The position numbers and the translations under genes are program-made. From the NCBI RefSeq assembly GCF_041248615.1, contig NZ_CP158426.1: a stretch of DNA of 64,000 nucleotides; one strand, 5' to 3'. Shown one piece after another: positions 7,129 through 42,910 of this stretch (position 1 is its first letter; each line of letters opens with the position of its first letter). The notes under the pieces were generated by a model. It searched no databases and was not told the DNA's origin. It worked only from the letters and a program-made list of their open reading frames with translations. The DNA is from Escherichia coli (GTDB lineage: Bacteria > Pseudomonadota > Gammaproteobacteria > Enterobacterales > Enterobacteriaceae).

Positions 7129-8870
7129 TGAATCACAAAGACTGGGATTTGGTCAACCGCCGCTTGGTGGCAAAAATGTTGTCTGAGCTGGAGTATGAGC
7201 AGGTTTTCCACGCGGAATCTCAGGGCGATGACCGCTACTGCATTAACCTGCCGGGAGCACAATGGCGCTTCATCGCTGAACGTGGTATCTGGGGCTGGCT
7301 CTGGATTGATGCTCAAACTCTGCGCTGCGCGGACGAGCCAGTACTGGCTCAGACGCTGCTGATGCAGCTAAAGCAGGTACTGTCAATGAGCGATGCAACC
7401 GTTGCTGAGCATATGCAGGATTTGTATTCCACGCTGCTGGGCGACCTGCAACTGCTGAAAGCCCGTCGCGGGCTGAGCGCCAGTGACCTGATTAATCTTA
7501 GTGCCGACCGCCTGCAATGCCTGCTGAGCGGTCATCCTAAATTCGTTTTTAATAAAGGTCGCCGTGGCTGGGGTAAAGAGGCGCTGGAACGATATGCGCC
7601 AGAGTATGCCAACACCTTTAGACTGCACTGGCTGGCGGTAAAACGTGAACATATGATCTGGCGCTGTGATAACGAGATGGATATTCATCAGTTGTTGACG
7701 GCCGCAATGGATCCGCAGGAGTTTGCCCGCTTCAGTCAGGTCTGGCAGGAAAACGGACTGGATCATAACTGGCTGCCGCTGCCTGTACATCCGTGGCAGT
7801 GGCAGCAAAAAATCGCCACCGACTTCATCGCTGATTTTGCCGAAGGCAGGATGGTGTCTCTCGGCGAGTTTGGCGACCAGTGGCTCGCCCAGCAGTCGCT
7901 GCGTACCCTGACCAACGCCAGTCGCCGGGGTGGGCTGGATATCAAGCTGCCGCTGACCATCTACAACACCTCATGCTACCGGGGGATTCCTGGCAGATAC
8001 ATCGCTGCCGGACCACTGGCTTCACGCTGGCTACAACAGGTTTTTGCGACCGACGCTACCCTGGTGCAAAGCGGTGCAGTGATCCTTGGTGAACCGGCTG
8101 CAGGCTATGTCTCCCATGAAGGCTATGCCGCGCTTGCCCGGGCTCCCTATCGCTACCAGGAAATGCTTGGTGTTATCTGGCGGGAGAATCCGTGCCGCTG
8201 GCTGAAACCGGATGAAAGTCCGGTTCTGATGGCAACACTGATGGAGTGCGACGAAAACGATCAGCCGCTGGCAGGCGCATATATAGACCGCTCCGGGCTG
8301 GACGCTGAAACCTGGCTTACGCAACTGTTCCGGGTGGTCGTGGTTCCTCTGTATCACCTGCTTTGCCGCTACGGTGTCGCGCTTATTGCACATGGACAAA
8401 ATATAACGCTCGCCATGAAAAAGGGGGTTCCACAGCGTGTTCTGCTGAAAGACTTCCAGGGCGATATGCGGCTGGTGAAAGAAGAGTTCCCCGAAATGGA
8501 CTCTTTGCCTCAGGAGGTTCGTGATGTTACATCCCGCCTGAGTGCGGACTACTTAATCCATGATTTGCAGACGGGTCACTTCGTGACAGTACTGCGTTTT
8601 ATTTCGCCACTGATGGTTCGTCTTGGCGTACCTGAACGGCGATTTTATCAACTGCTGGCAGCAGTGTTGAGTGATTACATGAAAAAACATCCACAAATGT
8701 CAGAGCGTTTTGCGCTTTTCTCACTTTTCAGGCCACAAATCATTCGCGTGGTGCTGAACCCGGTAAAACTGACCTGGCCTGATCTGGATGGCGGCAGCCG
8801 CATGCTGCCGAATTACCTTGAGGATCTGCAAAATCCGCTGTGGCTGGTAACTCAGGAATATGAATCATGA
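7128..8870 (+). CDS. iucC: Aerobactin synthetase IucC (NIS synthetase)
   Basis: 580-aa ORF overlapping iucB stop; paralogous to IucA. Confidence 0.93.
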   Translation: MNHKDWDLVNRRLVAKMLSELEYEQVFHAESQGDDRYCINLPGAQWRFIAERGIWGWLWIDAQTLRCADEPVLAQTLLMQLKQVLSMSDATVAEHMQDLYSTLLGDLQLLKARRGLSASDLINLSADRLQCLLSGHPKFVFNKGRRGWGKEALERYAPEYANTFRLHWLAVKREHMIWRCDNEMDIHQLLTAAMDPQEFARFSQVWQENGLDHNWLPLPVHPWQWQQKIATDFIADFAEGRMVSLGEFGDQWLAQQSLRTLTNASRRGGLDIKLPLTIYNTSCYRGIPGRYIAAGPLASRWLQQVFATDATLVQSGAVILGEPAAGYVSHEGYAALARAPYRYQEMLGVIWRENPCRWLKPDESPVLMATLMECDENDQPLAGAYIDRSGLDAETWLTQLFRVVVVPLYHLLCRYGVALIAHGQNITLAMKKGVPQRVLLKDFQGDMRLVKEEFPEMDSLPQEVRDVTSRLSADYLIHDLQTGHFVTVLRFISPLMVRLGVPERRFYQLLAAVLSDYMKKHPQMSERFALFSLFRPQIIRVVLNPVKLTWPDLDGGSRMLPNYLEDLQNPLWLVTQEYES

Positions 8871-10144
8871 AAAAAAGTGTCGATTTTATTGGTGTAGGGA
8901 CAGGGCCATTTAATCTCAGCATTGCTGCGTTGTCACATCAGATCGAAGAACTGGACTGTCTCTTCTTTGATGAACATCCTCATTTTTCCTGGCATCCGGG
9001 TATGCTGGTACCGGATTGTCATATGCAGACCGTCTTTCTGAAAGATCTGGTCAGTGCTGTTGCACCTACAAATCCCTACAGCTTTGTTAACTATCTGGTG
9101 AAGCACAAAAAGTTCTATCGCTTCCTTACAAGCAGACTACGTACAGTATCCCGTGAAGAGTTTTCTGACTACCTCCGCTGGGCTGCTGAAGATATGAATA
9201 ACCTGTATTTCAGTCATACCGTTGAAAACATTGATTTCGATAAAAAACGTCGATTGTTTCTGGTGCAAACCAGCCGGGGAGAATATTTTGCCCACAATAT
9301 CTGCCTTGGTACAGGAAAACAACCTTATTTACCACCCTGTGTGAAGCATATGACACAATCCTGTTTCCATGCCAGTGAAATGAATCTTCGTCGGCCGGAC
9401 CTTAGTGAAAAACGGGTAACCGTGGTTGGTGGAGGACAGAGTGGTGCAGACCTGTTCCTTAATGCATTACGCGGGGAATGGGGAGAAGCGGCGGAAATAA
9501 ACTGGATCTCCCGGCGGAATAATTTTAACGCACTGGATGAGGCTGCTTTTGCTGATGAGTATTTTACACCTGAATATATTTCAGGCTTCTCCGGACTGGA
9601 GGAAGATATTCGCCATCAGTTACTGGATGAGCAGAAAATGACATCGGATGGCATCACTGCCGATTCTTTACTGACCATTTATCGTGAGTTGTACCACCGT
9701 TTTGAAGTTCTGAGAAAACCAAGAAATATCCGTCTGCTACCCAGCCGCTCGGTAACAACTCTGGAAAGTAGTGGTCCTGGCTGGAAGTTGCTGATGGAGC
9801 ATCATCTGGATCAGGGCAGGGAGAGCCTGGAAAGTGATGTGGTGATTTTCGCCACAGGTTACCGTTCTGCGTTGCCACAAATACTTCCCTCACTGATGCC
9901 GCTGATCACCATGCACGATAAGAACACCTTTAAAGTGCGTGATGACTTCACTCTGGAATGGAGTGGCCCGAAAGAGAACAACATCTTCGTGGTCAACGCC
10001 AGTATGCAAACCCATGGCATCGCCGAACCTCAGCTCAGCCTGATGGCATGGAGATCTGCACGTATTCTTAATCGTGTAATGGGACGTGATTTATTCGATC
10101 TCAGTATGCCGCCCGCCCTGATTCAGTGGCGCAGCGGCACCTAG
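8867..10144 (+). CDS. iucD: L-lysine N6-monooxygenase IucD
   Basis: 425-aa ORF with N-terminal FAD-binding GVGTGP motif; overlaps iucC stop. Confidence 0.92.
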   Translation: MKKSVDFIGVGTGPFNLSIAALSHQIEELDCLFFDEHPHFSWHPGMLVPDCHMQTVFLKDLVSAVAPTNPYSFVNYLVKHKKFYRFLTSRLRTVSREEFSDYLRWAAEDMNNLYFSHTVENIDFDKKRRLFLVQTSRGEYFAHNICLGTGKQPYLPPCVKHMTQSCFHASEMNLRRPDLSEKRVTVVGGGQSGADLFLNALRGEWGEAAEINWISRRNNFNALDEAAFADEYFTPEYISGFSGLEEDIRHQLLDEQKMTSDGITADSLLTIYRELYHRFEVLRKPRNIRLLPSRSVTTLESSGPGWKLLMEHHLDQGRESLESDVVIFATGYRSALPQILPSLMPLITMHDKNTFKVRDDFTLEWSGPKENNIFVVNASMQTHGIAEPQLSLMAWRSARILNRVMGRDLFDLSMPPALIQWRSGT

Positions 10145-25726: not shown

Positions 25727-28700
25727 CTAAGCGAGATTATGGTTTTCAAATTGTTCCGGGCTGAGACCGCCACAGGCACTGTGACGACGCCAGCGATTGT
25801 AATCACACTCGATATAATTAAACACCGTTGCCCGCATTATTTCCCGGCTGCTAAAGCGTTCCCCGTGGATACATTCCACCTTCAGCGAATGAAAGAAGCT
25901 TTCCACACAGGCATTGTCATAACAGTAGCCTTTCGCACTCATACTGCCACGCAGGTTGTGTCGCTTCAGCAGCGCCTGATAATCCCCTGAACAGTATTGA
26001 CCACCACGGTCCGTATGAGCAATGACGCTTTCCGGGCGTCTTCTCCGCCACAACGCCATTTGCCGTGCATCACAGGCCAGTTGTGCTGTCATTCGCGGTG
26101 ACATCGACCAGCCAATGACGGCGCGTGACCACAGGTCGATGACTACTGTGAGATACAACCAGCCCTCATCGGTACGCAGTAGAGTAAGAGGCAGGGCGTA
26201 GTCGGACTATTTCCCTGCCTCTCCTCCCCGAACCGGACATGCACCTTTCAGCGCATCCGGCTCTCCATTTAAACGCTGGCGAACGCCATTGCCACTTCTG
26301 TAAAGCGCGATGTATACGTCTTTCTGGTTTCCGTCCTCAGATAGGGATTACCTTCGGGTAGCCGCCAGCGGAACAGCTTCTTGCCTTGCCCCACCAACCG
26401 GTACAGTATTTCGCCGCTGAGCTTGCCGTGATTGGTTTTACCAAATAAAACCCACGTTTTGCTCTGACCCGGTTTCGGTGATTTACACCACCACCTCATC
26501 AGGGAAGCGATACTTGTACGGTATTTGCGGGCCAGCCAGTGAGCCAGCTTCTAGAACACGACACGGTCGATATAACTGAAGACTTTGGCCTTAAAATCAA
26601 CGAACTGATAGAACATGGCCCAGCCTTTCAGTTTTCGGTTGAGTTGTTCAGCCATATCGACTTTGCTTTCACTGTAGTTGCCTGATAACAGTGCTGTCAG
26701 CGATGCGGCGAAGTTTCTGGCTTTCTCCAGCGGGATCGTTGAGACCACTTGCATCTCGCCATAACGACTGCGTTTGCGAATGATCCTGTGCCCCAGAAAG
26801 ATAAAGCCGTCATTAACATGGGTGATTTTAGTCTTATCCATGTTCAGCCTGAGTTTCAGACTGCCTTCGAGCACACCCCGACACTCCTCCCTGATGGCTT
26901 CCGCCTGTGCTTTGGTGCCTTTGACGATGAGGACAAAATCATCGGCATAGCGGCAGTACGCCACCGCGGGTTTCCACTGCCAGTTTTCTCTGACCGCCGT
27001 ACTTCGGCCCCGTTGGATACTGTTATTCCAGTACCACCGATCTTTTCTTGCTTTCCCGCTCAGGTAGCGCTCATGCAGGTATTGATCGAACTCATTCAGC
27101 ATGATGTTCGACAATAGCGGCGATATAACACCGCCCTGTGGCACACCTTCACTGGCCGCCCGAAAGAGACCGACATCGATATGTCCCGCCTTGATGGTTT
27201 TCCACAGCAGAGTCATGAAACGTGCGTCACTGATCCTGCGGCGTACAGCCTTCATCAGCAGTCGATGATGTACGGTGTCGAAGTAACTGGACAGGTCGCC
27301 TTCAATCACCCAGCGTCCCCGGGTTTCACCGCAGTCGGTGAGCTGTAATTTCACCGTGCGGATCGAGTGGTGGACACTGCGCTCAGGCCGGAAGCCATAT
27401 GAGAGCGTATGAAAATCACTCTCCCATATCGGCTCCATCGCCATCAGCATGGCCCGCTGAACAATACGATCCCGCAACGCGGGGATACCCAGTGGTCGCA
27501 GTTTGCCATTGCTTTTAGGGATGTAAACCCGCCTGGCGGGCAAGGGCTGGTAGTGGCCTGAGAGTAATTCATCCCTGAGGATTTGCAGCTCAACAGCCAG
27601 TCTGGCCTGTAGCATTGTTTTGTTCACGCCATCAACACCGGGGGTATTCGCCCCCTTTGATGAAAGCGTGATCCGCGCCGCTTCAGCCAGCCATTCTGGT
27701 TGTGTTATCAGACGCAGCAGCCGTTGAATCCGTAGGGACGGATCGGTGGCTGCCCATGTGGCAAGCTTGCGTTGCATTTCGCTGATTATCAAAGGTCTTC
27801 ACCTCGTTAGGTCAGTTAATTTACGTCGCAGACACATTCAAACTGCTTCCCTTCGCCATGTAATGGGCTTTCCCCATCGCGGACTACTACGGAAGCTCCG
27901 CCAGCCAGCGCGTCATCGGAGCCATGCCCCCTTAACATCCGTCGCTGACCTTCCCCGGTTTGCCTGACTGGACTCAGACATACTGAGGAGGCTGCCCGTC
28001 GCACTCTTTATCCTTGCTTGCCGCAAGTTGGCAGAAGTCAGCAACGCGAGCGTGATAGACGCTGCTGCCCCGGAGTTTCGCATACATGTCAAAACACCTT
28101 CGACCGGCAGTGCTTACGTATCACTGCCAGTTCCTCCTGCACGGCCTGTCAGATCACGTAGGCCGTGGTGACGTTTTCAACCCACAGAGGCGGATTAACG
28201 GGTTCATATTCTTAAGCCTTTCAGTACTTAACCTTGAGGATCATCTCGGCTTAGTGATCTCGCCTCAATCCCCGTTGTCAGCGGGTTACATCACCCTGCG
28301 GGCATGCCGCAGGTCACTGCCGCTCAGGTTCTCCACCGTCACACCCGGTGGGATTGTTGGGTTTCTCATCGTGAGTTACCGGTTCAATATTCCAGACAGA
28401 CTCGTGGTTCATTTGAGCGTCTATGCTCGCCCTGAACTCCGGGCACACAGTACGTGATGTCACCCACCCACTTCTGGTTCGGGCCGCTGGCGCTGAAGTC
28501 CTGCTCCAGCAGATTCTCCAATACGGGCAGGCCATGTGCACGGTAGCTGGCCGGGCTGAACTTCCGGCTGGCTTTCGCCCGCAGCCCCTGACGACGCAGG
28601 CTGGCGGCAATGGTTTTAATATTGAACTCCGGCAGTTCGTCAGCAAGGCGGGGAGCACCGTATCGCTGCTTTGCCTCAAAGAATGCCTTATGGACAGCGG

Positions 28701-30394: not shown

Positions 30395-30640
30395 GCTAGC
30401 GAAATGCAACGCAATCTTGCCACATAGGCAGCTACCGGCACCTCCAGACGGATAGAACGGCTACTGCGTCTGATAACACAACCAGAATGGCGGCAGCCCT
30501 GCAGACAGAAAATGTGGTAAAAGCGTTCAGACAGACTCTGAGGCTGGGAAAAATGACGAGTCCCCTGATACATCATTCTGTACTGTTCAGCTTTCTATCA
30601 ATCATTTCATGAAAAAAACGGGATGACTTGTTCAATCATG
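30395..30640 (+). pseudogene. Composite debris: group II intron RT 5' fragment (30395-30490) joined to an IS3-family orfB fragment (30491-30640)
   Basis: gcgaaatgcaacgcaa...ctgcgtctgataacacaaccagaatgg matches the intact intron RT start; ...LQTENVVKAFRQTLRLGKMTSPLIHHS matches orfB of the 46470-47700 element. Confidence 0.5.
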
Positions 30641-30903
30641 CTAAATGTTTGTAAAAACACAGCAATAAATTATATTAAATTCAGCCTTAATCAATAGATT
30701 AAATAACTGTAATAAATAAGAGTATTAGTGGTTTTTTCTATGGTTTTAATTGGTGGTATCTATTGGGGCAGCGTTGACACAGGTTTGATTTTTAAGAAAA
30801 ATACAAACTAATTTTAAGTCAAAAGAGTTTCATTGTCGTTCAAAGCGTTTATTTATTATAAATCAAAATATTAATTAGTTCTTTAATTTTTGTTATATAC
30901 AAC

Positions 30904-32130
30904 ATGTCAGGAACTATACGAAAGATAATAAAAGAGGATGATGTATTTCATTCTTCTATTCGCCGTATTGAATGGTTGTTTGAAACATTCTCTTCTGTCT
31001 GTTTGTCTTTTTCCGGAGGAAAAGACTCCACTGTGCTGCTCCATCTTGCGGCTGATGTGGCTCGCAGGAAGAAACGTCGTTTCTCTGTATTATTCATTGA
31101 CTGGGAAGCTCAGTATCAGTGCACCATTGAACATGTTCAGAAGATGCGGGAAATGTACCGGGATGTGACGGATACCTTTTACTGGGTGGCACTCCCCCTG
31201 ACTACGGTAAACGGTGTCTCTCAGTTTCAGCCGGAATGGATATGCTGGGAACCAGGTGTGGAGTGGGTTCGTCAGCCACCAGATGACGCTATTACAGATA
31301 TGTCGTATTTCCCATTTTATCGGTATGCCATGACGTTTGAAGAATTTGTTCCGGCATTTTCTTCCTGGTTTGCCGGTAACCGGTGTGGAGTGGCAATACT
31401 GACTGGTGTTCGTGCTGATGAATCGCTCAATCGCTTTATGGGACTGGTGTCTCAGCGCAAACTGAGATATGCAGATGATAAACCCTGGACCACAGCGTCA
31501 CCTGAAGGGTTTTATTACACCTTGTATCCGTTGTATGACTGGAAAGCCCGTGATATATGGATATATAACGCCAGAACCCGGGCTATCTACAATCCCCTGT
31601 ATGACCTGATGTACCGTGCCGGCGTGCCGTTACGCAACATGCGGGTCTGTGAGCCTTTTGGCCCGGAACAGCGTAAGGGACTGTGGCTTTACCATGTTCT
31701 GGAGCCGGAAACCTGGGCCAGGATGTGTGAGCGGGTGTCGGGTGCTGCCAGCGGGGCGCTTTATGCCAATGAGAGCGGTGCCTATTTTGCCCTGCGTAAG
31801 CGTATCACGAAGCCACCTCATCATACCTGGCGTAGCTATGCGATGTTCCTGCTGGATGTGATGCCGGAAAGAACGGCAGAACATTACCGTAATAAAATTG
31901 CTGTCTACCTGCGCTGGTATCAGACGCGGGGCTTCCCGGATGACATCCCGGATGAACAGGAGAATGACCTGGGGAGCCGGGATATCCCGTCCTGGCGACG
32001 TATCTGTAAGACACTCATAAAGAATGATTTCTGGTGTCGGACCCTCTCCTTCAGTCCGAACAAACCCCGGCACTATGAACGTTATCTGCAGCGTATGAAA
32101 GAAAGGAGGAAGGAATGGGGGATTCTGTGA
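30904..32130 (+). CDS. ibrA: PAPS-reductase-like PP-loop ATP pyrophosphatase, IbrA/DndC-like
   Basis: PP-loop motif SGGKDS near N-terminus; 408 aa; AT-rich promoter tract upstream; coupled to the next ORF. Confidence 0.7.
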   Translation: MSGTIRKIIKEDDVFHSSIRRIEWLFETFSSVCLSFSGGKDSTVLLHLAADVARRKKRRFSVLFIDWEAQYQCTIEHVQKMREMYRDVTDTFYWVALPLTTVNGVSQFQPEWICWEPGVEWVRQPPDDAITDMSYFPFYRYAMTFEEFVPAFSSWFAGNRCGVAILTGVRADESLNRFMGLVSQRKLRYADDKPWTTASPEGFYYTLYPLYDWKARDIWIYNARTRAIYNPLYDLMYRAGVPLRNMRVCEPFGPEQRKGLWLYHVLEPETWARMCERVSGAASGALYANESGAYFALRKRITKPPHHTWRSYAMFLLDVMPERTAEHYRNKIAVYLRWYQTRGFPDDIPDEQENDLGSRDIPSWRRICKTLIKNDFWCRTLSFSPNKPRHYERYLQRMKERRKEWGIL

Positions 32131-32759
32131 CACCTGAGGTGGAAGTATTGAGCAACATGATTCGACAGTACTTCAGTCAGGAACGATCTGAAGAAGAGAC
32201 CATACGAGCCCTTAATCATCTGCGCAGGGTGTTGCATGAGGTCAGCCCTTTTGCACAGGAGCCTGTGGATTGTGTGTTGTGGGTGAAAGCGGATGAGGTG
32301 GTGGCCAACGATTACAATCCCAATGTCATGTCTTCCAGTGAAAAAAAACTGCTTAAACATTCACTGGAGCAGGATGGATTCACGCAGCCTGTGGTGGTTT
32401 CGGAAGAGAAGGAGCATTATCTGGTCGTGGATGGTTTTCATCGTCAGTTGCTGGGCAGGAAAGCGGATACGAGAAAACGTCTGAAGGGCTGGCTGCCAGT
32501 GGCCTGTATTAATCCAGAGAGAAAGGGACAGGCATCACGTATTGCCGCAACCATACGGCATAACCGTGCCAGGGGAAAACACCAGGTAACGTCAATGTCT
32601 GACATTGTCAGGGACCTCTCACGTCTGGGCTGGACAGATGAGCGTATTGGCACAGAGTTGGGCATGGACCAGGATGAAGTGCTGAGGCTGAAACAGATTA
32701 GCGGGCTGACAGAGCTGTTTCAGGAAGAGGATTTCAGCCCTGCATGGACGGTTCGTTAA
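32115..32759 (+). CDS. ibrB: ParB/Srx-fold DGQHR-like protein, IbrB/DndB-like
   Basis: DGFHR motif (VVVDGFHRQLLG); start overlaps ibrA stop by 16 nt with AGGAGGAAGG RBS. Confidence 0.7.
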   Translation: MGDSVTPEVEVLSNMIRQYFSQERSEEETIRALNHLRRVLHEVSPFAQEPVDCVLWVKADEVVANDYNPNVMSSSEKKLLKHSLEQDGFTQPVVVSEEKEHYLVVDGFHRQLLGRKADTRKRLKGWLPVACINPERKGQASRIAATIRHNRARGKHQVTSMSDIVRDLSRLGWTDERIGTELGMDQDEVLRLKQISGLTELFQEEDFSPAWTVR

Positions 32760-32761
32760 GG

Positions 32762-33060
32762 GCTATGTTCTGACGAGAGTGTAATTTAAATTTTGTAATT
32801 GCCTGTTTTTGATATGTTCCCTACACCGTGGAGACAGGCAATTGATAAACAAGAATCCAATGCTATTGCTGCCGAACTGGTAAATTGCCTTAAAACCGAA
32901 TCTGATCTTAACCTGTTTTTATACATGCTTACGAAGTGTACTGTTAAAGATGAGCTTAGCGCTGAACTCACAGAGCATCTTGGACATGAGAACACCTGAG
33001 AATAAAGGCAGCAATGCAAGTAAAGACTACTCGATTAAAACGCTGCTCATAAATGATGCC
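32762..33060 (+). pseudogene. IS256-family (variant A type) 5' fragment lacking outer terminal repeat; transposase residues ~1-60
   Basis: tgtaatttaaattttgtaattgcctgtttttgatatgttc matches the variant A leader; begins immediately after the ibrB stop. Confidence 0.6.
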
Positions 33061-42419: not shown

Positions 42420-42910
42420 TCATGTGTGCGTTCATAGCTATATTCTGATAACCATTTCTCCGTAATTTCTAGAACTTCATTCAGCGTTCTGAACAGATAA
42501 AAATCGAGTATTTCTGTACGGTGTGTCCTGTTAAAACGCCCAATAAAAGCGTTCTACGTCAGCTTACCCGGCTGGATAAACTCCCGTTTTACTGCGTGTA
42601 TATCAGCCCATTCAGCCAGCGTTAGAGAGATAAATTCCGAACCATTATCTATGCGCAGCATGACCGGATAACTGCGATTTGCCGCGAACCTGCTGCCTCA
42701 GAACCTGAAAAAGTTTTGAAAAACCGTATCGAGGATATCGCTCGTCCACTGCCTGCACCACCACAATAACGGGGTCGTACCACGTGGTATCCGGACGGTA
42801 ATGGGAAACCGTTCTGCTCTGGTTCAGACTCCGGCAGGCCTGATGGACACTGAGTCCAAATGTCGTTATCTGATGAGTAACAAGCTCACGCTTACAGGCT
42901 GGTTTTAAAG
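42420..42910 (-). pseudogene. IS3-family orfB C-terminal remnant
   Basis: ...PVMLRIDNGSEFISLTLAEWADIHAVKREFIQPGKLT... with stops. Confidence 0.5.

Follow-up and report, generated by a model that had tools for sequence, protein, structure and literature searches.

The closest described relatives of the gene pair analysed here are IbrA and IbrB of ECOR-9, catalogued in SEED as "IbrA and IbrB: co-activators of prophage gene expression", which are reported to turn on prophage eib genes whose expression is otherwise poor (work of Sandt, Hopper and Hill in 2002, cited in PMC7649339). Next come YbdN and YbdM of Escherichia coli K-12, the products of a core operon for which repression by CitR has been described (PMC9068703); YbdM was termed "completely uncharacterized" in 2022 (PMC8764527). 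Targeted literature searches on ibrAB yielded no mechanistic study.

More distant parallels are offered by two kinds of systems. In KorB, VirB and Noc, the N-terminal nucleotide-binding fold of ParB is followed by a helix-turn-helix, and the output is gene-regulatory and exerted on mobile elements. A 2025 survey describes ParB-fold proteins as binders of CTP, ATP or GTP that frequently carry a fused enzyme, and cites VirB and BisD as CTP-dependent gene regulators; its main text mentions neither IbrB nor PAPS-reductase partners (PMC12704722). The other systems couple a ParB-like fold to a nucleic-acid-modifying enzyme. These are the phrog_498 ParB-domain/methyltransferase fusions of phages and plasmids, the DNA-directed DndB-DndC pair (with SspD and BrxP), in which a PAPS-reductase-like PP-loop enzyme accompanies a ParB/Srx-fold protein of the DGxHR type, and DpdA-DpdB, where the ParB-like ATPase DpdB is needed by its partner enzyme for the insertion of a modified DNA base (PMC12839542).

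The ibrAB locus and its distribution

The window, a stretch of 64,000 nucleotides of E. coli DNA (contig NZ_CP158426.1), harbours two overlapping ORFs (Table 1), which an original prediction had described as an ibrA/ibrB (ybdN/ybdM-like) pair with SGGKDS in the first product and DGFHR in the second. Both motifs and the overlap are read directly in the sequence, and the assignment was upheld. Annotated loci in RefSeq match the window DNA with 100% identity, and their products are named "phosphoadenosine phosphosulfate reductase" and "IbrB-like domain-containing protein". The deduced proteins share 90% and 88% identity with those annotated as IbrA and IbrB in phage PhiR5_2, and about 91% with the copy of EDL933. 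With YbdN and YbdM of K-12 the identity is 58% and 57% over the full length, and the domain architectures, the gene order and the overlapping junction are common to both pairs. The sequence hallmarks of the IbrA/IbrB (YbdN/YbdM) family were found, namely PAPS_reduct plus DUF3440 in the first protein, the IbrB motifs in the second, adjacency and close identity. These comparisons identify the pair as an intact ibrAB allele, ibrAB being a known accessory operon and a mobile paralogue of core ybdNM. As ibrAB is already named and annotated, and identical copies exist in many sequenced E. coli, the locus itself brings nothing new.

Table 1. Position of ibrAB and associated features in the window.
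Feature	Position	Strand	Description
IS3-family transposase pseudogene fragment	30499..30637	+	As annotated by RefSeq in NZ_LT599825, where this region is identical (window = locus + 10599)
AT-rich upstream region	30600..30903	+	GC 24-28%, composition profile
ibrA	30904..32130	+	408 aa; PAPS-reductase-fold PP-loop domain (residues ~30-240) and all-helical DUF3440 (~240-405)
PP-loop SGGKDS	31012..31029	+	IbrA residues 37-42; conservation of at least 90% among 87 homologues
DUF3440 domain	31621..32067	+	IbrA residues 240-388
ibrB Shine-Dalgarno AGGAGG	32104..32109	+	Within the 3' end of ibrA, 5 nt ahead of the ibrB ATG
ibrA/ibrB overlap	32115..32130	+	16 nt
ibrB	32115..32759	+	214 aa; N-terminal helical extension, ParB NTP-binding fold, helix-turn-helix, conserved C-terminal FSxAW tail
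DGFHR motif	32430..32444	+	IbrB residues 106-110; counterpart of ParB box II (GERR)
IS256-family transposase N-terminal fragment	32799..32999	+	IS1414 transposase N-terminus, 44% identity over 50 aa, E 2e-11

The ORF pair represents genuine genes, and a chance pattern is excluded. Both genes are intact and show dN/dS values of 0.07-0.23 relative to the Nissle and EDL933 alleles; by this measure they are under purifying selection. The internal Shine-Dalgarno sequence, together with the overlap, is consistent with translational coupling of ibrA and ibrB. The allele belongs to the same family and clade as that of ECOR-9, with the same gene order and overlap, but it is located in another island (sit/iutA/iha) and has a different upstream region; activation of eib is a genetic phenotype known from the literature on the ECOR-9 pair.

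Of 5426 complete E. coli genomes, 2149 carry ibrAB. The pair was also found on 527 plasmids, 211 of which are typed as conjugative. The paralogous ybdNM belongs to the core genome: CitR/YbdO represses it, and 5420 of these genomes have it at one constant chromosomal position next to citR, whereas ibrAB is accessory and mobile (genomes, plasmids, a phage). In agreement with the island-cargo status proposed earlier, the cassette is mobile cargo bordered by IS debris on both sides. Upstream, RefSeq annotates IS3-family and integrase-core pseudogene fragments ending at ~30637, the IS3-family fragment being the final IS piece before the AT-rich tract, and the downstream edge is formed by the IS256-family fragment (recognized by its match to IS1414), followed by an IS66 fragment.

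As for the "AT-rich promoter tract" of the original prediction, its composition was confirmed (GC of 24-28% across 30600-30999, about 50% in the ORFs). The promoter label was not, because the sigma-70-like sites upstream of ibrA are no commoner than in shuffled sequences (5 found, 4.5 expected). The top promoter-like site is TTGACA-17-AAAAAT at 30774-30802. No conserved ibrAB promoter was found either, as the sequences ahead of the gene pair in the window, in Nissle, in EDL933 and in the phage do not align with one another. The ibrAB promoter is probably located within the AT-rich tract, which is also a likely target of nucleoid-protein silencing.

The two proteins and their association

The PP-loop claim for the first ORF received support from both profile and structure searches. 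In Pfam, IbrA matches PF01507 (PAPS_reduct) in two pieces (1e-7, 6e-7) and PF11922 (DUF3440, E 8e-25), and among the PHROG families it matches phrog_2302 (E 2e-83). Foldseek comparison with the PDB retrieved CysH, APS reductase, FMN adenylyltransferase and CysD over the N-terminal half only, and no solved-structure relative of DUF3440 was found in the same database. With a confident AF2 model (pLDDT 94) at hand, IbrA is predicted to adopt the PAPS-reductase/FMN-adenylyltransferase/CysD fold and to be a PP-loop ATP pyrophosphatase.

Apart from SGGKDS, the residues that are invariant or at least 90% conserved among 87 IbrA homologues comprise D66/E68, R170/E173/S174/R177, D212/W213/D217 and Y229/N230/Y233, and the conserved residues of DUF3440 include R247, P268, R277 and D375. 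A conserved cysteine column is absent across these diverse homologues; the most cysteine-rich column reaches 84% Cys and is occupied by Ala96 in the window protein. Therefore, Fe-S chemistry of the DndC/TtuA type or thiol chemistry of the CysH type seems unlikely.

The ParB/Srx fold postulated for the second ORF was likewise recovered. IbrB matches phrog_2159 (E 1e-87), its profile matches include Noc, ParB, SerK and SbnI, and a weak match links it to the phrog_498 fusions. Foldseek aligned it with ParB-CTP/CDP, Noc and KorB over 140-157 columns (KorB with an rmsd of 2.8 A over 146 columns), the KorB-KorA co-complex being among the matches. The motifs NxYNPN, DGxHR and RHNRARGxH, which accompany the helix-turn-helix, are invariant in 52 IbrB homologues and are all present in the window protein. 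The D, G, H and R of DGFHR never vary in this set, some members having DGYHR. When the motif is aligned to GERR of Noc, the Glu is replaced by Phe/Tyr and the first Arg by His, so that the test for box II (GERRxRA) finds IbrB devoid of the GERR glutamate. The protein also stops about 25 residues past the helix-turn-helix, without a C-terminal dimerisation domain. IbrB is thus predicted to be a truncated protein of the ParB/KorB/Noc type with an NTP-binding fold and a helix-turn-helix. Although KorB, VirB and Noc have the same domain order and provide the best structural matches, IbrB differs from them in having DGFHR instead of GERR, in lacking the dimerisation domain, in its size (170-215 aa) and in its constant enzyme partner. 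Since both the GERR glutamate and the dimerisation domain are missing, a sliding-clamp mechanism is not assured. A longer, 395-aa IbrB-like ORF in one of the surveyed loci (L028) contains no additional recognisable domain.

The co-occurrence of homologues as pairs, which had been proposed as a check, proved nearly universal. In 78 of 79 genomic loci from many phyla ibrB adjoins ibrA on the same strand, and the phage records of the two proteins number 224 and 225, with an equal host breakdown; judging from this distribution, ibrA and ibrB form an obligate pair across bacteria and phages. An interface between the proteins is only hinted at by secondary-structure changes in a linker-fused AF2 model (pTM 0.67), which gains strands at IbrA residues 7-13 and in the C-terminal tail of IbrB that are absent from the model of IbrA alone. 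Natural A-B fusions were considered as well, but only two chimeras (P0352, P0347) were encountered; they look like deletion derivatives and are uninformative.

Neighbouring genes and comparison with Dnd-type, defence and sulfate-assimilation systems

Around homologues from other phyla the gene neighbourhood varies, and the neighbours that were inspected are housekeeping genes. In 67 non-enterobacterial loci, where ten neighbour clusters were inspected individually, only two genes recur near the pair, one for an SNF2-like ATPase (13 of the 79 loci, in addition to Flavobacterium, Lactobacillus and Streptococcus phages) and an ORF of ~136 aa. The latter, located upstream of the pair in 13 loci, was considered as a GNAT acetyltransferase, an idea left unsupported by the lack of any Pfam or PHROG match. 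In Arthrobacter and Bacillus phages the pair is accompanied by genes for another ParB-like protein and for a small methyltransferase (phrog_11826). The pair adjoins terminase genes in phages Akoma, Salgado, Taranis and FCL-2, and belongs to a block adjoining AcrIIA5 in phage D4276; two metagenomic representatives with long flanks are phage contigs. The handful of enteric contexts feature iroBCDN, a saf/afa fimbrial operon, a YadA-like autotransporter, a perC-like gene and the sit/iutA/iha island. In E. coli, Klebsiella and Salmonella, accessory ibrAB copies accompany plasmids as well as islands for virulence and iron uptake. The neighbour survey detected no conserved group donor (sulfur carrier, amidotransferase) beside the pair.

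The original prediction called ibrAB a "minimal Dnd-like" module and put forward a defence role as a hypothesis. In the corresponding reading, the pair would be a minimal Dnd/Ssp-like system for DNA phosphorothioation or self-marking that acts in defence. The combination of a PAPS-reductase-like PP-loop enzyme with a ParB/Srx-fold protein does recall DndC and DndB, and DGFHR is similar to DGQHR. The motif occupies the same loop of the ParB/Srx fold, yet it aligns equally well to GERR of Noc/ParB. In structure and profile comparisons, IbrB comes closest to ParB, Noc and KorB. The PADLOC matches of IbrA, which could be taken as further support, are weak: BrxP gave 27 bits (2.4e-7) within the PP-loop region only, and the DndC models 16.3 and 13.1 bits (9e-4) with no significant stretch. 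Neither DndC nor SspD models appear among the NCBIfam matches of IbrA, which has DUF3440 where DndC has its own specific regions. For IbrB, no DndB/DGQHR-domain model matches at E<=0.01, the sole NCBIfam match being Noc (5.5e-5). No single system of PADLOC-DB 2.0 is matched by both proteins; IbrA has weak partial matches there and IbrB none. As stated in the original prediction, DndA/D/E partners are absent from the window neighbourhood, and cysteine desulfurase, DndD/E, SspB/C or a restriction partner were found neither here nor in the 79 other loci (ten neighbour clusters inspected individually); SspA is missing as well. The resemblance to DpdA-DpdB is an analogy of logic, with homology in the ParB fold; the partner there is a TGT-type transglycosylase, and restriction components are present.

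Because membership tests against the DndC, DndB, CysH and PADLOC models all failed, both the "minimal Dnd-like" and the "defence" readings are unsupported. The non-conservation of cysteine in IbrA speaks further against the former; as to the latter, ybdNM is a core operon, the neighbours are variable and, where inspected, of the housekeeping kind, and the family is abundant in phages. The phosphorothioation reading must hence be considered highly improbable. A literal interpretation of the annotation, a PAPS reductase of sulfate assimilation next to a plasmid-partition ParB, can draw on the RefSeq product name and on the fold which IbrA has in common with CysH, but is practically untenable. 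The NCBIfam models of the CysH type score 21-34 bits against cut-offs of 154-254, the catalytic C-terminal cysteine is not conserved, and neither the DUF3440 fusion nor an obligate ParB-like partner fits such an enzyme; a partition role is opposed by the missing dimerisation domain and by the lack of a ParA gene near ibrAB in the window. Assignment as a sulfate-assimilation gene, a plasmid-partition ParB or a member of the Dnd, Ssp or BREX systems was ruled out by the model scores and cysteine non-conservation. In short, ibrAB is not a Dnd/Ssp phosphorothioation module, a sulfate-assimilation enzyme or a recognised defence system.

Possible mode of action and significance

Four results of the survey, namely the obligate pairing, the lack of a conserved cysteine in IbrA, the KorB/Noc likeness of IbrB and the recurrent SNF2-like, ParB-like and methyltransferase partners, speak against sulfur chemistry of the Dnd type and against a place in sulfate metabolism, and favour an ATP-dependent step directed at DNA. 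In the mechanism that we infer, and to which slightly less than an even chance may be given, IbrB brings IbrA to DNA for an ATP-dependent covalent step that does not involve sulfur and activates silent acquired genes. IbrB would sit on DNA through its helix-turn-helix under the control of the bound nucleotide and would dock IbrA, possibly via its conserved C-terminal tail. IbrA would then spend ATP on adenylating, and thereby activating, a target located on or at the DNA, and the outcome would be a covalent change that does not involve sulfur. On enterobacterial islands and plasmids the read-out would be the activation (counter-silencing) of surface and virulence genes that are AT-rich and horizontally acquired. 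In phages, IbrA and IbrB would work on the DNA of the phage, in many cases together with an SNF2-like translocase, another ParB-like protein or a methyltransferase. The phrog_498 fusions provide a parallel for such a partnership, except that IbrA is a separate PP-loop protein and not a fused SAM-dependent methyltransferase. A nucleic-acid-modifying, epigenetic-regulatory role, as suggested in the original prediction, is a plausible hypothesis. Several observations count against the inferred mechanism. Virtually every E. coli has ybdNM, yet K-12 is not known to contain an unexplained DNA modification, although the operon is normally repressed there. No group donor is conserved beside the pair, the A-B interface comes from secondary-structure changes in the linker-fused model, and the adjacency to virulence genes comes from a handful of contexts and is not a statistic.

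The same evidence can be arranged differently. IbrB might be a nucleotide-switched regulator of the VirB/KorB kind that displaces or blocks silencers. IbrA would leave nucleic acid alone and would control IbrB by making, consuming or sensing a small nucleotide-linked molecule, or by modifying a protein. The structural matches of IbrB, including the KorB-KorA co-complex, point in this direction, as do the precedents of VirB and BisD in the ParB-fold survey (PMC12704722), the reported phenotype of gene activation and the small-molecule substrates of CysD, FMN adenylyltransferase and CysH, the nearest solved relatives of IbrA; the ParB-fold kinases SerK and SbnI also match the IbrB profile. Such a regulator, however, leaves unexplained why the pair is found beside SNF2-like ATPases, methyltransferases and packaging genes in virulent and temperate phages of many phyla, and DUF3440 has conserved Arg/Trp residues; we consider it rather unlikely. 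Somewhat lower still must be rated a phage-derived module of anti-defence or DNA hypermodification. Its primary role would be to alter phage or plasmid DNA and so let it escape restriction, CRISPR or silencing; island copies such as the present one would be morons, and gene activation a side effect. Ordinary chromosomal neighbours surround many bacterial copies, ybdNM is a vertically kept core operon with a LysR repressor, and no such phenotype is reported in the literature searched, although the numerous phage records, the AcrIIA5-adjacent block, the terminase neighbours, the metagenomic phage contigs and the conjugative plasmids would all be in keeping with this origin. Finally, many PP-loop enzymes modify tRNA, and IbrA has weak matches to TilS, TtuA and NcsA, so one could imagine that it acts like TilS, TtcA or MnmA on a tRNA or rRNA base with IbrB as an accessory. 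Given that IbrB is of the DNA-binding ParB/HTH type, that the recurrent partners (SNF2-like ATPase, second ParB-like protein) are of the DNA type and that THUMP, PUA or TRAM domains were undetected in the Pfam scan of IbrA, this seems very unlikely.

Extended to the whole family, the preferred reading of a DNA-directed, ATP-dependent step would make IbrAB and YbdNM a very widespread class of ParB-guided systems of sulfur-independent, PP-loop adenylation-based nucleic-acid modification, with which phages, plasmids and islands counter silencing or defence, gene activation in E. coli being a by-product; this broader proposal is a doubtful one. The family merits attention, since virtually all E. 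coli possess a paralogue, ybdNM, that still goes by the label uncharacterised, the two-protein core is retained by hundreds of phages from at least four bacterial phyla, and accessory ibrAB accompanies the enterobacterial islands and plasmids named above. The present survey narrows the hypotheses on the biochemistry of ibrAB.

The ibrAB locus and its relatives

The original prediction described two overlapping ORFs with SGGKDS and DGFHR motifs, bounded on both sides by IS debris, and this arrangement is indeed present in the window. The ibrA and ibrB ORFs overlap by 16 nt, SGGKDS occupies residues 37-42 of IbrA and DGFHR residues 106-110 of IbrB, and an AGGAGG sequence lies 5 nt upstream of the ibrB start codon. 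According to the RefSeq annotation, IS3-family and integrase-core pseudogene pieces reach up to ~30637 on the 5' side of ibrA; on the 3' side of ibrB an IS256-family transposase stub is followed by an IS66 fragment. The "AT-rich promoter tract" held in part: the GC content of the 300-400 nt 5' of ibrA is 24-28%, against ~50% within both ORFs, but sigma-70-like sites in this tract are no commoner than in shuffles. Both ORFs are intact, with dN/dS values of 0.07-0.23 relative to the Nissle 1917 and EDL933 alleles.

Features of the ibrAB locus and the surrounding IS-rich island (window positions)
Feature	Position	Strand or location	Remarks
ibrA ORF	30904-32130	same strand as ibrB	408 aa
AGGAGG	32104-32109	upstream of ibrB start codon	
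ibrB ORF	32115-32759	same strand as ibrA	214 aa
IS256-family transposase N-terminal stub	32799-32999	3' of ibrB	44% identity over 50 aa to IS1414, E 2e-11
STnc490 match	21150-21271	+	134 bits
Group II intron catalytic domain match	26179-26265	-	64 bits
ltrA pseudogene	~26269-27777		internal stop
isrN match	42764-42906	+	138 bits

The same IS-rich island contains Rfam gathering-score matches to two Hfq-binding sRNAs, isrN and STnc490. In addition, a match to the group II intron catalytic domain adjoins an interrupted reverse transcriptase/maturase gene (ltrA), and the two together look like a decayed group II intron within the IS debris.

Many E. coli chromosomes in RefSeq contain the 2.2-kb region at 100% identity and name its products "phosphoadenosine phosphosulfate reductase" and "IbrB-like domain-containing protein". 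A copy in phage PhiR5_2, annotated as IbrA/IbrB, shares 90% and 88% protein identity with the window pair, and YbdN and YbdM of K-12 share 58% and 57% with IbrA and IbrB over their full length. Hence, the window pair is one allele of the ibrAB lineage, which is accessory and mobile. Membership of the IbrA/IbrB-YbdN/YbdM family, as originally proposed, agrees with every testable feature; the pair is real and its ibrAB-like nature was rightly identified, although both genes had already been described and annotated. Of 5426 complete E. coli genomes, 2149 have the cassette, 84 of its places being on plasmids, and 5420 have ybdNM, a core operon that is the sister of mobile ibrAB. Among plasmids, 527 records match the cassette (Klebsiella 256, Escherichia 187, Shigella 61, Salmonella 21), 211 of them typed as conjugative. 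In the single Shigella match listed, of 61, a 223-kb S. flexneri plasmid, the match spans the 3' 42% of the query alone, that is, the ibrB part; judging from this one record, the cassette on the large Shigella virulence plasmid may be truncated.

The window copy is homologous to the Nissle-type and EDL933-type copies from a point no more than ~60 nt from the ibrA start as far as the ibrB stop, and the 5' regions of the compared copies do not align, which indicates that both ORFs move as a unit. Citrobacter werkmanii has both an ibrAB-like (86%) and a ybdNM-like (59%) pair, so the paralogous pairs coexist. An Edwardsiella ictaluri locus (L015) harbours two pairs, at 8004-9846 and 15292-17150, ~6 kb apart.

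In the window the cassette resides in the sit/iutA/iha island. Its neighbours elsewhere are a TonB-dependent receptor and a glycosyltransferase cluster (Nissle), a perC-like gene and Ag43/Cah (EDL933), a YadA-like trimeric autotransporter and a SPATE (E. coli p100), a saf/afa fimbrial operon (a Salmonella Berta plasmid), and iroBCDN, directly downstream of the cassette, with fecIA also alongside (Klebsiella virulence plasmid pSC7-vir). The cassette thus adjoins horizontally acquired surface and iron-uptake genes in unrelated replicons, an anecdotal observation to which no statistic is attached. Such adjacency fits the reported co-activator phenotype, ibrAB being cited as enhancing Eib expression (Sandt et al. 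2002, as cited in PMC7649339), and ibrAB could regulate the adjoining genes. Meanwhile, ybdNM is repressed by CitR/YbdO (PMC9068703), and YbdM was termed "completely uncharacterized" in 2022 (PMC8764527).

Predicted properties of IbrA and IbrB

The PAPS-reductase-type PP-loop domain ascribed to IbrA was confirmed by a match to Pfam PAPS_reduct and DUF3440 (E 8e-25) and by the modelled fold. In the AlphaFold2 model (pLDDT 94, pTM 0.92; alignment of 87 diverse homologues) the first ~240 residues align structurally with PAPS/APS reductases, with eukaryotic FMN adenylyltransferase (FAD synthase) and with CysD; for the helical DUF3440 half, comparison with PDB structures gave no match. Residues D66, E68, D217 and Y233 are invariant in the 87 sequences, with at least 90% conservation in the PP-loop and at R170/E173/S174/R177, D212/W213 and Y229/N230. 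No conserved cysteine was found among them, the best column being 84% Cys and alanine in the window protein. The fold and this conservation argue for an ATP-pyrophosphatase or adenylyl-transfer reaction that dispenses with the Fe-S or thiol steps seen in DndC, TtuA and CysH.

Among the IbrA homologues of the representative library, a 631-aa protein (P0380) carries, after the conserved YN of YNxLYD and before the LYD-equivalent, a ~230-aa insertion whose sequence looks like an intein. Proteins P0352 and P0347 are chimeras with an IbrB N-terminus joined to the C-terminal part of IbrA, probably deletion derivatives or assembly artefacts from B-then-A loci.

IbrB matches Pfam ParB_N weakly and phrog_2159 ("ParB-like partition protein") strongly, and a 52-sequence IbrB profile retrieves Noc, ParB/Spo0J and the ParB-fold kinases SerK and SbnI. 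In a linker-fused IbrA-IbrB model (AlphaFold2, 26 paired sequences; pLDDT 79.5, pTM 0.67) the best structural matches of IbrB are CTP/CDP-bound ParB, Noc and KorB, the last with an rmsd of 2.8 A over 146 columns; the predicted ParB-like fold is thereby upheld. The invariant motifs NxYNPN, DGxHR and (T)IRHNRARGxH are followed by an HTH (LGMDxDEvLRLKQ) and then by a conserved FSxAW tail. DGFHR aligns to GERR of Noc/ParB, with Phe in place of glutamate and His in place of the first arginine. IbrB has no C-terminal dimerisation domain. Compared with the model of IbrA alone, the fused model gains beta-strands at IbrA residues 7-13 and in the C-terminal tail of IbrB; as the fused model lacks PAE, it gives only a hint that docking may occur via the conserved tail.

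Genetic pairing and neighbouring genes

The family comprises 1856 representatives (50% identity level, E<=1e-3). As anticipated, the homologues co-occur: in 78 of 79 loci from species-representative genomes IbrB lies directly beside IbrA on the same strand, one of the 78 being cut by a contig end. The exception, a locus of Bacteroides finegoldii that lacks IbrB, is accompanied by a second locus with the full pair in the same genome. The loci come from Enterobacterales, Bacteroidota, Firmicutes, Alphaproteobacteria, Helicobacter, Listeria, Opitutales and one Asgard-binned contig. The latter, binned as a Candidatus Prometheoarchaeum MAG, encodes a complete pair with 41% identity to the window IbrA; a virus, gene transfer or misbinning might account for it. 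Searches of the phage collection gave 224 records for IbrA and 225 for IbrB, distributed identically among hosts (Flavobacterium 90, Mycobacterium 60, Streptococcus 21, Arthrobacter 12, Bacillus 8).

Few other genes recur near the pair. Thirteen of the 79 loci, as well as phages FCL-2, AQ113 and D4276, encode an SNF2-like ATPase of ~400 aa, for which one metagenomic copy shows ResIII, SNF2-rel_dom and Helicase_C domains. The ATPase belongs to phrog_62 and lies immediately 5' of the pair both in Flavobacterium, Lactobacillus and Streptococcus phages (L007:4145-5356, L008:5806-6984, L009:3509-4744) and in the 13 bacterial loci (within L013-L091), which represent several phyla; together with IbrA-IbrB it may constitute a three-gene variant of the module. 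A second, distinct ParB-like protein is encoded by Akoma, Salgado, 022DV001 and Taranis, and a small methyltransferase (phrog_11826) by one Arthrobacter and one Bacillus phage (L010:5536-6114, L011:6058-6609), 3' of the pair in the former and 3' of IbrA in the latter; in both, a second ParB-like protein lies 5' of IbrA. An ORF of ~136 aa directly 5' of IbrA on the same strand is conserved in 13 non-enterobacterial loci (e.g. L027:1760-2170) and has no Pfam or PHROG match. In phages the module is located just before or within the terminase-portal block, or adjoins AcrIIA5. The remaining bacterial neighbours are variable, those inspected being housekeeping genes.

Relation to known systems and possible function

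The "minimal Dnd-like" designation finds no support: the pair differs from DndC/SspD/BrxP in model scores, conserved cysteines and partner genes, and IbrB falls outside the DndB/DGQHR models. IbrA is not a CysH either, lacking a conserved cysteine and matching the CysH models only weakly; its scores with the curated NCBIfam models for CysH, CysD, TilS and LarE are all 19-36 bits (cut-offs 94-397). IbrB departs from canonical ParB in box II, the dimerisation domain and ParA. No system catalogued in PADLOC matches the window pair, which leaves the suggested defence role unsupported. What the pair does encode is a predicted ATP-using PP-loop enzyme without a conserved cysteine and a ParB/KorB-like nucleotide-binding HTH protein, in obligate genetic pairing.

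In its logic, the coupling of a ParB-fold partner to a DNA-directed enzyme, IbrAB may resemble Dnd or Dpd; it is a member of neither. DpdB with DpdA provides a precedent for a ParB-fold protein serving an enzyme (PMC12839542), and a further one comes from the numerous ParB-enzyme fusions, whose specificity is for CTP, ATP or GTP (PMC12704722). The reading that we favour, tentatively and at somewhat short of an even chance, is that IbrB would bind DNA under nucleotide control and also dock IbrA, which would adenylate a target at the DNA and so bring about a non-sulfur covalent change; in enterics, otherwise silent acquired genes would come to be expressed. The main rival seems rather unlikely: a regulator of the VirB/KorB type that works solely at the protein level, with a partner acting on a small molecule. 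Slightly less probable still is that the family is primarily an anti-defence DNA-modification module of phages and plasmids, the island copies being morons. Under the favoured reading of IbrB-guided, IbrA-catalysed change at DNA, phages may apply the same core to their own DNA, accompanied in some cases by a translocase or methyltransferase. The remaining interest lies in how the family, core in E. coli and frequent in phages, works biochemically, for which the present data yield specific tests.
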